DNA from: Candidatus Pacearchaeota archaeon
GTDB lineage: Archaea > Nanobdellota > Nanobdellia > Pacearchaeales > GW2011-AR1
Direction of reading: 5' to 3'
DNA length: 64,000 bases
Assembly: GCA_041660485.1 (NCBI GenBank)
Contig: JBAZWF010000001.1
Location: forward strand, 474,224 to 538,223
Shown: positions 36,931-37,762 of the stretch, piece by piece
How positions within the stretch are numbered: the stretch's first letter is position 1
Layout: every line of letters starts with the position of its first letter
Notes under the pieces: model-generated
What the model saw: the letters and a program-made list of their open reading frames with translations, nothing else
Told to the model about the DNA's origin: nothing
Database searches by the model: none
Program-made: the position numbers and the translations under genes

Positions 36931-37160
36931 TTTCCCTCTTTTTTATAAAATGTTAATCTTAATAACTATTTTACAAAGTTCAAATTCTATTGTTTTTTAT
37001 AAACTTTTGTATTCTCTCAAAATAGGTAAAAAACAAACGATCATTTCCTATGGAATAAAAGAAGGAATTTTTAATTAAATTTAATTAAAACCTTAAAAAC
37101 CGAGAGAGAAACAAACTTTAACATAAAATAAACAAATATTCGTAAAATAAATTAAATAAA

Positions 37161-37188
37161 CTCCCTGACACCCTCATTTCTACTGGAA
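37161..37188 (-). promoter_or_regulatory. ORB-like origin recognition box 1
   Basis: The reverse complement reads TTCCAGTAGAAATGAGGGTGTCAGGGAG. This has one mismatch to the euryarchaeal ORB core TTCCAGTGGAAATGA, followed by a G-string. Confidence 0.65.
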
Positions 37189-37249
37189 AAAATAAAAATC
37201 AAATTATCTTATTATTTATAATCCTTCTTTCTATACAACAACTTAACTA

Positions 37250-37340
37250 TATACTATATTATATATATCTTATTTATATGTATTATAATATATATAATAT
37301 ATAATATATATATTTATAAATAAAAATTAAAAGAAATAAA
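37250..37340. other. AT-only duplex-unwinding-element candidate
   Basis: 'atatactatattatatatatcttatttatatgtattataatatataatatataatatatatatttataaataaaaattaaaag' contains almost no G/C and lies between the inverted ORB boxes. Confidence 0.6.
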
Positions 37341-37367
37341 CAAACATTCAATTTTCTTTTTAAACAT

Positions 37368-37395
37368 TTCTATAAGAAACCAAGGGGTCAGGGTT
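37368..37395 (+). promoter_or_regulatory. ORB-like origin recognition box 2 (inverted relative to box 1)
   Basis: TTCTATAAGAAACCAAGGGGTCAGGGTT aligns with box 1 at TTC.A.A.GAAA....G.GGTCAGGG. Confidence 0.55.
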
Positions 37396-37762
37396 ATTTT
37401 ACCCTTCCTTATAACTATATAACTAATTTAAGATATTTATTCTTATATTAACTAAAACCTTCTTATAATCAATTTTATTCACTTATTATCTTTTTTACCT
37501 TATTTTTACCCCATTTACCCCATATTTACTCCCTTAACACTTATTTCCTATATTTTTCATTATTATTATCTTTTTAATAATCTAGAAATTAAAAATTAAT
37601 TAATAAGTCTTTTATAATAATCTCCTTATTATCTCCTTTATCTTTCAATTAATCTTATATTTCTTTAAATTTTAACTTTATCTTCTCTTTTTATCTATAC
37701 TTTCCCGAATATAATCAAATGACAATAGAAAAGTTTAAATATAGTTTCTTATTTTACCATTC

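Follow-up and report, generated by a model that had tools for sequence, protein, structure and literature searches.

Among the replication origins described in archaea, those closest to the locus considered here are oriC of Pyrococcus, oriC1 of Sulfolobus and oriC1 of Aeropyrum pernix, all of the Orc1-1/origin recognition box (ORB) class; the first was reportedly the subject of a study by Myllykallio in 2000. We have analyzed a stretch of 64,000 nucleotides (hereafter the window) from an assembly of Candidatus Pacearchaeota archaeon (GCA_041660485.1; 922 kb, 7 contigs, 29% G+C), in which it corresponds to positions 474224-538223 of contig C1. Our subject is the 832-bp gap at 36931-37762 of the window (19% G+C), which has minus-strand genes, beginning with orc1/cdc6, on its left and four plus-strand open reading frames (ORFs) on its right. 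This locus is very likely the single chromosomal oriC, of the same class as the origins named above, and as such it is an ordinary, well-supported example of a known archaeal origin type rather than a new kind of element. An earlier inspection of the letters, made without database searches (the sequence-only reading), had predicted here an oriC with inverted ORBs around an unwinding element, and this prediction is supported by the uniqueness of the boxes, their conservation, the instability of the duplex, the type of Orc1 and the AT skew. To our knowledge there is no experimentally mapped origin in any DPANN archaeon, and we found no description of ORB architecture in DPANN in the literature consulted.

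In Pyrococcus abyssi and P. furiosus (PMC1904270) the gene order is oriC - cdc6/orc1 - dp1 - dp2, as it is here; the synteny with Pyrococcus claimed by the sequence-only reading agrees with the published oriC-cdc6-dp1 arrangement. The two systems also share a pair of long ORBs placed as an inverted repeat around AT-rich DNA, the presence of mini-ORBs, a second ORB cluster within a neighbouring gene a few kb away, and the lack of ORB clusters anywhere else, the P. abyssi oriC being reported as practically the sole Cdc6 site. They differ in the position of the second cluster, which in Pyrococcus is in dp1 but here is on the other side of the origin, in a gene for a winged helix-turn-helix (wHTH) protein, and in the G-string, which here is GGGTGTCAGGG or GGGGTCAGGG at 3-4 nt past the dyad, and in Pyrococcus is CTCTGGGGGG after a longer spacer. 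The host is also different, being a mesophilic DPANN genome of ~0.86 Mb and 29% G+C, with an origin predicted from sequence.

The initiator of Sulfolobus/Saccharolobus oriC1 (PMC12141716, PMC6742236) is the closest relative of known structure (2QBY_A) of the Orc1 encoded here. In that origin, which is bound by Orc1-1 and has the order ORB3-DUE-ORB2 (DUE, duplex unwinding element), inverted ORBs surround the unwinding element as they do in our locus. Initiation takes place there at the junction of the unwinding element with ORB3 (PMC12141716); as a parallel, the unwinding element here keeps a constant distance to ORB2. Both have a conserved extra motif on the inner side, ucm in Sulfolobus and TTTCTTTTTAAAY here, although the two sequences are unrelated; moreover, the Sulfolobus chromosome contains three origins, with three Orc1 paralogues and WhiP, as opposed to a single ORB cluster and a single Orc1 in the present case. 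In A. pernix oriC1 (ORC1-ORB4 structure, 2V1U) a closely homologous ORC1 (1.2e-88) is bound as a monomer, with defined polarity, to a box of the same type, a dyad with a G-rich flank; unlike here, the ORBs number four and form two pairs, and the genome has another origin besides. As this locus shows, the Orc1-1/ORB system is essentially unchanged in a symbiont-like genome of 0.86 Mb and 29% G+C.

Boxes, unwinding element and initiator

The features that carry the argument are listed here in window coordinates; scores in bits are from the weight matrix described in the next section.

37041..37055, minus strand: mini-ORB, TTCCATAGGAAATGA, a dyad without G-string, with 2 mismatches to the Pyrococcus core
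37163..37188, minus strand: ORB1 (cdc6-proximal), TTCCAGTAGAAATGAGGGTGTCAGGG, 26 nt; 32.1 bits, second in the genome
37189..37367, no strand: duplex unwinding element, a 179-bp spacer of 10.6% G+C with its core at 37240-37339
37353..37365, plus strand: conserved TTTCTTTTTAAAC block abutting ORB2 on the side of the unwinding element; alignment consensus TTxCTTTtTAAAt
37368..37393, plus strand: ORB2 (distal), TTCTATAAGAAACCAAGGGGTCAGGG, 26 nt; 38.0 bits, top in the genome
39217..39244, plus strand: ORB3, a complete ORB-like box within the coding sequence of the wHTH protein (38854-39687); 29.6 bits, third in the genome
39274..39301, plus strand: ORB4, which repeats ORB3 in direct orientation 57 bp further on but is weaker; 22.3 bits, about as high as the null reaches

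Both ORB1 and ORB2 consist of a TTCC..GAA dyad core followed by a G-string. The dyad of ORB1 (TTCCAGTAGAAA) points to the unwinding element and its G-string (GGGTGTCAGGG) points outward; ORB2 is inverted with respect to ORB1, so that its dyad (TTCTATAAGAAA) also lies towards the unwinding element and its G-string (GGGGTCAGGG) outward. ORB1 is identical at 14 of 15 positions to TTCCAGTGGAAATGA, the 15-mer core of the P. furiosus ORB1/ORB2 oligonucleotides (PMC1904270). A minus-strand box with one mismatch to the euryarchaeal core had previously been placed at 37161..37188, with an inverted partner at 37368..37395: both boxes, the mismatch count and the inversion are confirmed, while the start of the former is corrected to 37163 and the end of the latter to 37393. 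The mini-ORB has the same orientation as ORB1. Its TTCCTATGGAA form spans 37045-37055, exactly where the sequence-only reading had seen a mini-ORB-like box, and its matrix score (13.2 bits) is inside the null range.

The spacer between ORB1 and ORB2 contains 19 G/C in all, with 1 G/C in its best 60-bp window, 3 in the best 80 bp and 6 in the best 100 bp. No uninterrupted A/T run on the 857-kb contig is longer than the one that it includes (52 nt, 37281-37332), and, as calculated from nearest-neighbour energies, it also holds the least stable 50-mer and 100-mer of that contig. The description of this region as a pure-AT stretch of ~90 bp is thus a mild overstatement. An A-rich tract (~37318-37352) precedes the TTTCTTTTTAAAC block, and block and tract are both present in the window and in 14 of 14 relatives from the same genus; the block could be an extended footprint of the initiator, the site of a second factor or a TATA-like element. 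Two other AT-rich places on the contig were considered as candidates and rejected. A comparably unstable 150-mer at C1:404.7 kb is in a plain 206-bp gap between GARS-like and aminoacyl-tRNA synthetase genes, and a 44-nt A/T run at C1:77.0 kb, beside the AT-skew minimum, belongs to an A-rich spacer among small ORFs; neither has an ORB.

The gene adjacent to the gap (35722-36930) is the sole orc1/cdc6 gene on C1, the chromosome contig. It encodes a protein of 402 aa with AAA+, lid and Cdc6_C domains (Pfam), which among solved structures is most similar to those of S. solfataricus Cdc6-1 (2QBY_A, 2.7e-103) and of A. pernix ORC1 (2V1U, 1.2e-88), the two Orc1 proteins crystallised on ORB DNA. Compared to these two, the recognition helix of the winged-helix domain (TQRRVSDI.SELDM.GI) and the wing (GRxG[KR]T) are retained. 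As is characteristic of an oriC of the Orc1-1/ORB type, the boxes lie next to a gene whose product belongs to the Orc1-1 clade and combines AAA+ and lid domains with a winged helix at the C-terminus.

It has been established that Orc1 monomers bind ORBs with defined polarity, and that MCM is loaded between ORBs of opposite polarity that flank an unwinding element (PMC6742236; PMC12141716). By analogy, since the dyads point inward and the G-strings outward, MCM should here be directed to the 37189-37367 spacer. In the scheme that we propose, monomers of the adjacent Orc1/Cdc6 would bind ORB1 and ORB2 with defined polarity, with the winged-helix domain on the TTCyAnnnGAAA dyad and the initiator-specific motif of the AAA+ domain on the G-string; given the inward dyads, two initiators would face each other across the 179-bp AT-rich spacer and would load MCM where the chromosome melts most readily, and replication would be bidirectional. 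Additional sites for cooperative or regulatory binding of Orc1, comparable to the ORB cluster in Pyrococcus dp1, would probably be provided by the mini-ORB, close to the promoter of orc1, and by ORB3 and ORB4.

Uniqueness and conservation of the boxes

As one way of checking the prediction, the sequence-only reading had suggested a weight-matrix search for ORBs. We derived a matrix of 28 columns from 53 boxes that precede orc1 in 31 non-redundant relatives, leaving out the genome under study, and used it to scan both strands of all 922 kb; five second-order Markov genomes served as the null, with maxima from 15.8 to 22.1 bits. The two boxes of the gap turned out to be the two best matches of the genome: ORB2 (match at 37366) and ORB1 (at 37163) were followed only by ORB3 and ORB4, while beyond these four the maximum in the entire genome was 14.3 bits. 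All above-null matches are thus contained within 2.1 kb, and the ORB cluster is unique, as it also is in G004, a genome of the same genus, and in G022, from another genus of the family. In G004 all four matches above 18 bits in 764 kb are at the orthologous locus, where the least stable 50-mer and 100-mer (rank 1) are also found between the ORBs.

ORB3 and ORB4 have the orientation of ORB2, and are located 1.8-1.9 kb to the right of the boxes in the gap. In relatives L003-L010 a homologue of ORB3, TTCCAyAGGAAATAGGGGGGTTTCGA, occurs at a distance of 1.8-3.2 kb from cdc6, in DNA that did not enter the training set of the matrix, and a second, ORB4-like copy was found in L004. Contigs assembled from a public run break at 39217-39301, leaving a 34-nt piece at ~3x depth.

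The relatives of this Orc1/Cdc6 at 75-82% identity come from metagenome-assembled genomes (MAGs) titled Pacearchaeota or Nanoarchaeota, which places the organism in the Nanobdellota, among the DPANN archaea. Absence of the boxes at the orthologous locus of related genomes would have spoken against an origin; instead, 50 boxes were found in the 700 bp upstream of orc1, distributed over 26 of 26 non-redundant relatives, while the same seed pattern gave 0 boxes in the orc1 coding sequence, 0 downstream of it and 0 in shuffled upstream regions. A first k-mer test of conservation (9-mers, 1 mismatch) was uninformative because the DNA is AT-rich, and was replaced by position-specific nulls. All 14 genus relatives share the same layout upstream of orc1/cdc6, consisting of mini-ORB, ORB1, unwinding element and inverted ORB2; in these and in the window alike, at least two ORBs of opposite polarity surround the AT-rich element. 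The mini-ORB itself is kept in 14/14 (null 0.6), and a box ~100-125 bp upstream of cdc6 is present in most relatives. The conserved types are GGTGT for ORB1 and TTCTATAnGAAA....GGGGTsAGGG for ORB2. Inverted box pairs upstream of orc1 persist across Nanobdellota down to ~50% Orc1 identity, and related boxes, for example CTCCAGTGGAAATAAAGGGGGTCAGG, are found upstream of cdc6 in Archaeoglobus MAGs.

In the set formed by the window and the 14 genus relatives, the best box in the minus orientation is 111-363 bp from the orc1 start and the best one in the plus orientation is further out; the spacer between the two has a length of 121-515 bp and a G+C content of 2-17%. Within the 1 kb that precedes the gene, the least stable 60-mer is always between the inverted ORBs, and it starts 92-121 bp before ORB2 whatever the length of the spacer. 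This constancy indicates that the unwinding element is anchored to ORB2, and together with the conserved inner block it suggests that the site of melting or of the start of replication is set from ORB2.

In a genome of 29% G+C, where AT-rich spacers and short A/T-rich words are common, some resemblance of intergenic DNA to the ORB core could arise by chance. The degenerate ORB pattern TTCYANNNGAAANNNNGGKGTSAG, however, matches only ORB1 and ORB2 in the window, with 0.00 matches expected, and TTCCAGTGGAAATGA at up to 2 mismatches has 2 matches against 0.17 expected; the matrix scores of the two boxes exceed the null maximum by 10-16 bits, and the 50 boxes upstream of orc1 compare to none in the controls. 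With these figures chance similarity is effectively refuted, and we assign to it a negligible probability.

Complete genomes of Nanobdellota are currently just rotated to the orc1 gene (bioRxiv 10.64898/2026.05.13.725050). The conserved arrangement provides a genus-wide model of the origin, composed of the ORB1, ORB2 and mini-ORB sequences, the unwinding element anchored to ORB2 and the conserved inner motif, which can be used to orient genomes, to estimate replication in situ from coverage and, as only one Orc1 is involved, to plan assays of its binding.

Strand composition, read depth and rival explanations

Contig C1 is 856,651 bp long, and its two ends are in one 52-bp tandem repeat (C1:1-129 versus 856523-856651, 127/129 bases identical), from which we conclude that it is very probably a closed circular chromosome whose assembly was broken in the repeat array. 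The skew analysis suggested by the sequence-only reading gave a divided answer, in that AT skew turns at the locus here and in G004, and both GC and AT skew do so in G022, but GC skew has no turn in this genome. The best single knot of the A-T disparity curve is at 510 kb of C1, with the centre of the locus at 511.5 kb, and a two-knot fit places the knots at 505 kb and 65 kb, diametrically opposite to each other (the two arcs are ~49% and ~51% of the circle). In intergenic DNA the AT skew has a positive sign between 80 and 511 kb and a negative one over the rest of the circle, from 512 kb through the contig ends to 80 kb. The polarity at the locus (leading strand T>A, GC step towards G) is that of an origin. 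The 764-kb contig of G004 has its A-T knot at 226 kb, near the origin at 229.9 kb (ORBs at 229.8-230.1 kb); GC skew is again single-signed, although mirrored. The 511-kb contig of G022 has instead a classical GC skew: at third positions, the strand-independent skews of GC and of AT alike reverse their sign in the interval 280-320 kb and a second time near 60 kb, the ORB cluster is at 313.2-315.0 kb, and the polarity there is that of an origin. Thus, where skew can be read, the orthologous locus behaves like an origin of bidirectional replication. In none of the three genomes do the genes change their prevailing orientation at the origin; since this is true even of the one with classical skew, gene orientation cannot discriminate between models of replication.

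Several observations weigh against the locus being an active origin. Cumulative GC skew falls monotonically over C1 to a net value of -26,500, with no extremum at the locus or elsewhere. Third-position GC skew, taken as the average of plus- and minus-strand genes, stays below zero in all windows of 60-80 kb (-0.07 to -0.30), with only a step at the locus from ~-0.27 to ~-0.15. No gradient of marker frequency was seen in word depth, which we obtained for three stretches from assembled contigs of one groundwater run: values were 17.3-19.9 to the left of the origin, 17.4-19.9 to the right, and 15.9-20.3 at 70-90 kb, the predicted terminus, which corresponds to ~18-19x at both places. The read-depth peak anticipated by the sequence-only reading thus finds no support in this run, although for a population that was probably slow-growing the flat depth is uninformative. 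Some archaea, namely Thermococcus kodakarensis and Haloferax volcanii, reportedly grow without using their origins (PMC5663688), so that the presence of an origin does not prove its use; finally, binding, polarity, MCM loading and firing at this locus are all deduced from sequence features.

As regards GC skew, its lack of an extremum means that the test neither supports the origin nor relocates it. The net (G-C)/(G+C) of C1 is -0.107, with one sign around the apparently circular 857-kb chromosome, and intergenic GC skew is negative almost everywhere. It is conceivable, but on balance unlikely, that this signal reflects a strongly asymmetric replication in which the fork on the orc1-polD side is dominant, or else a chromosome-wide strand asymmetry unrelated to replication. 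If replication were asymmetric, the opposite fork would often be impeded, with the same-polarity ORB3 and ORB4 and the protein-binding arrays to the right of the origin acting perhaps as a polar barrier. A practical consequence of single-signed GC skew on a closed circle is that origin finders based on GC skew will fail on this genus. In the public run, no long contig covers the origin gap at ≥99% identity (window 36906-37985), and depth falls there to ~6-13; poor recovery of extremely AT-rich DNA, or strain variation, is the likely reason.

Some of these same facts could be accommodated if the boxes were mainly transcriptional operators, through which Orc1 would autoregulate orc1-polD and the divergent operon beginning with a PRC-barrel gene, with replication starting elsewhere or being origin-independent (recombination-driven). 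The flat read depth, the missing GC-skew turn and the origin-independent growth reported for T. kodakarensis (PMC5663688) would all be in line with this idea, as would the position of the mini-ORB, ~40 bp from the conserved promoter block of orc1, and the TATA-like TTTTTAAA that abuts ORB2. Operators, however, have no need for the least stable DNA of the chromosome at a constant distance from one box, as observed in the window and in all 14 genus relatives; nor would they account for AT skew turning at the locus in two genomes and GC plus AT skew switching in a third, or for the lack of another ORB cluster in the genome according to the matrix scan. Regulation and origin function are in any case compatible, and we regard the replacement of the latter by the former as distinctly improbable.

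A further explanation, that this is not the chromosomal oriC but an origin belonging to an integrated plasmid or virus-like element, is brought to mind by the wHTH genes, repeat arrays and serine recombinase just to the right of the locus, and by the presence in contig C2 of another Orc1-like gene, accompanied by iterons of its own and by a gene for ParA. Against it are the identity of the initiator, a core Orc1-1 orthologue in synteny with polD DP1/DP2 and the sole Orc1 on the 857-kb contig, the retention of the locus across an order-level set of genomes, and the chromosome-scale skew switches centred on it; we therefore consider this explanation very improbable, and retain the interpretation of the locus as the chromosomal oriC.

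The C2 locus (C2:15281-19330, equal to L120:2282-6331) includes a second Orc1/Cdc6-like AAA+ gene, with 28% identity and without a Cdc6_C match. In the 1.09-kb gap beside this gene there are a 46-nt inverted repeat and at least 6 repeats of the TTCACGTTCACT type, in inverted arrangement, around a (TA)12 run, and a ParA-type ATPase gene follows beyond the gap; taken together, these features resemble a module for the replication and partition of a separate replicon. As a candidate for a second chromosomal origin it was rejected, because its repeats are different and because the part of it that contains the Orc1-like gene (L120:1-3600) is absent from the run in which the chromosome has a depth of ~18x; that absence marks it as an accessory element or a mis-binned contig.

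Neighbouring genes, probable promoters and repeats

The genes and minor elements of the locus are as follows.

29230..34170, minus strand: DP2, the large subunit of polD, with a LAGLIDADG intein inserted in it (Pfam PolC_DP2_N, central and catalytic domains, Intein_splicing, LAGLIDADG_3)
34109..35692, minus strand: polD small subunit DP1 (Pfam DNA_pol_E_B, 7.2e-13)
35722..36930, minus strand: orc1/cdc6 initiator gene, Orc1-1 type (Pfam Cdc6_C, Cdc6_lid, AAA)
36995..37013, minus strand: probable orc1/cdc6 promoter, AAAGTTTATA, resembling a B recognition element (BRE) and TATA box, ~70 nt before the ATG
37507..37524, plus strand: two exact tandem copies of TTTACCCCA (GGGGTAAA on the minus strand) and a degenerate third, probably incidental
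37724..37741, plus strand: probable PRC-barrel gene promoter, AAAGTTTAAATA, 22-33 nt ahead of the ATG
37763..38023, plus strand: first rightward gene, for a PRC-barrel protein (Pfam PRC, 2.3e-08)

The gene order given by the sequence-only reading, with cdc6, DP1 and DP2 leftward and four genes rightward, matches the ORF coordinates and the Pfam assignments. The direct repeats of TTTACCCCA that it had located at 37505..37530 exist as two tandem copies within 37507-37524, but the third copy is degenerate, and the k-mer analysis did not recover them as conserved among the 14 genus relatives. Minus-strand G-strings to the right of ORB2 are seen in only some relatives. A search of Rfam at permissive E-values returned for the gap two sub-threshold chance matches and no known RNA family; a scan for sigma-70 promoters, which are irrelevant for archaea, gave hits at the level of shuffled sequence.

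The putative promoter block of orc1 is kept in 14/14 genus relatives against a null of 3.9, and that of the PRC-barrel gene in 13/14. The word AAAGTTTA[AT]A precedes both divergent genes (36998-37007 on the minus strand, 37730-37739 on the plus strand), with one or both copies in most genus relatives, and is likely a BRE/TATA promoter core. Given the predicted position of its promoter, the PRC-barrel gene would be leaderless or nearly so.

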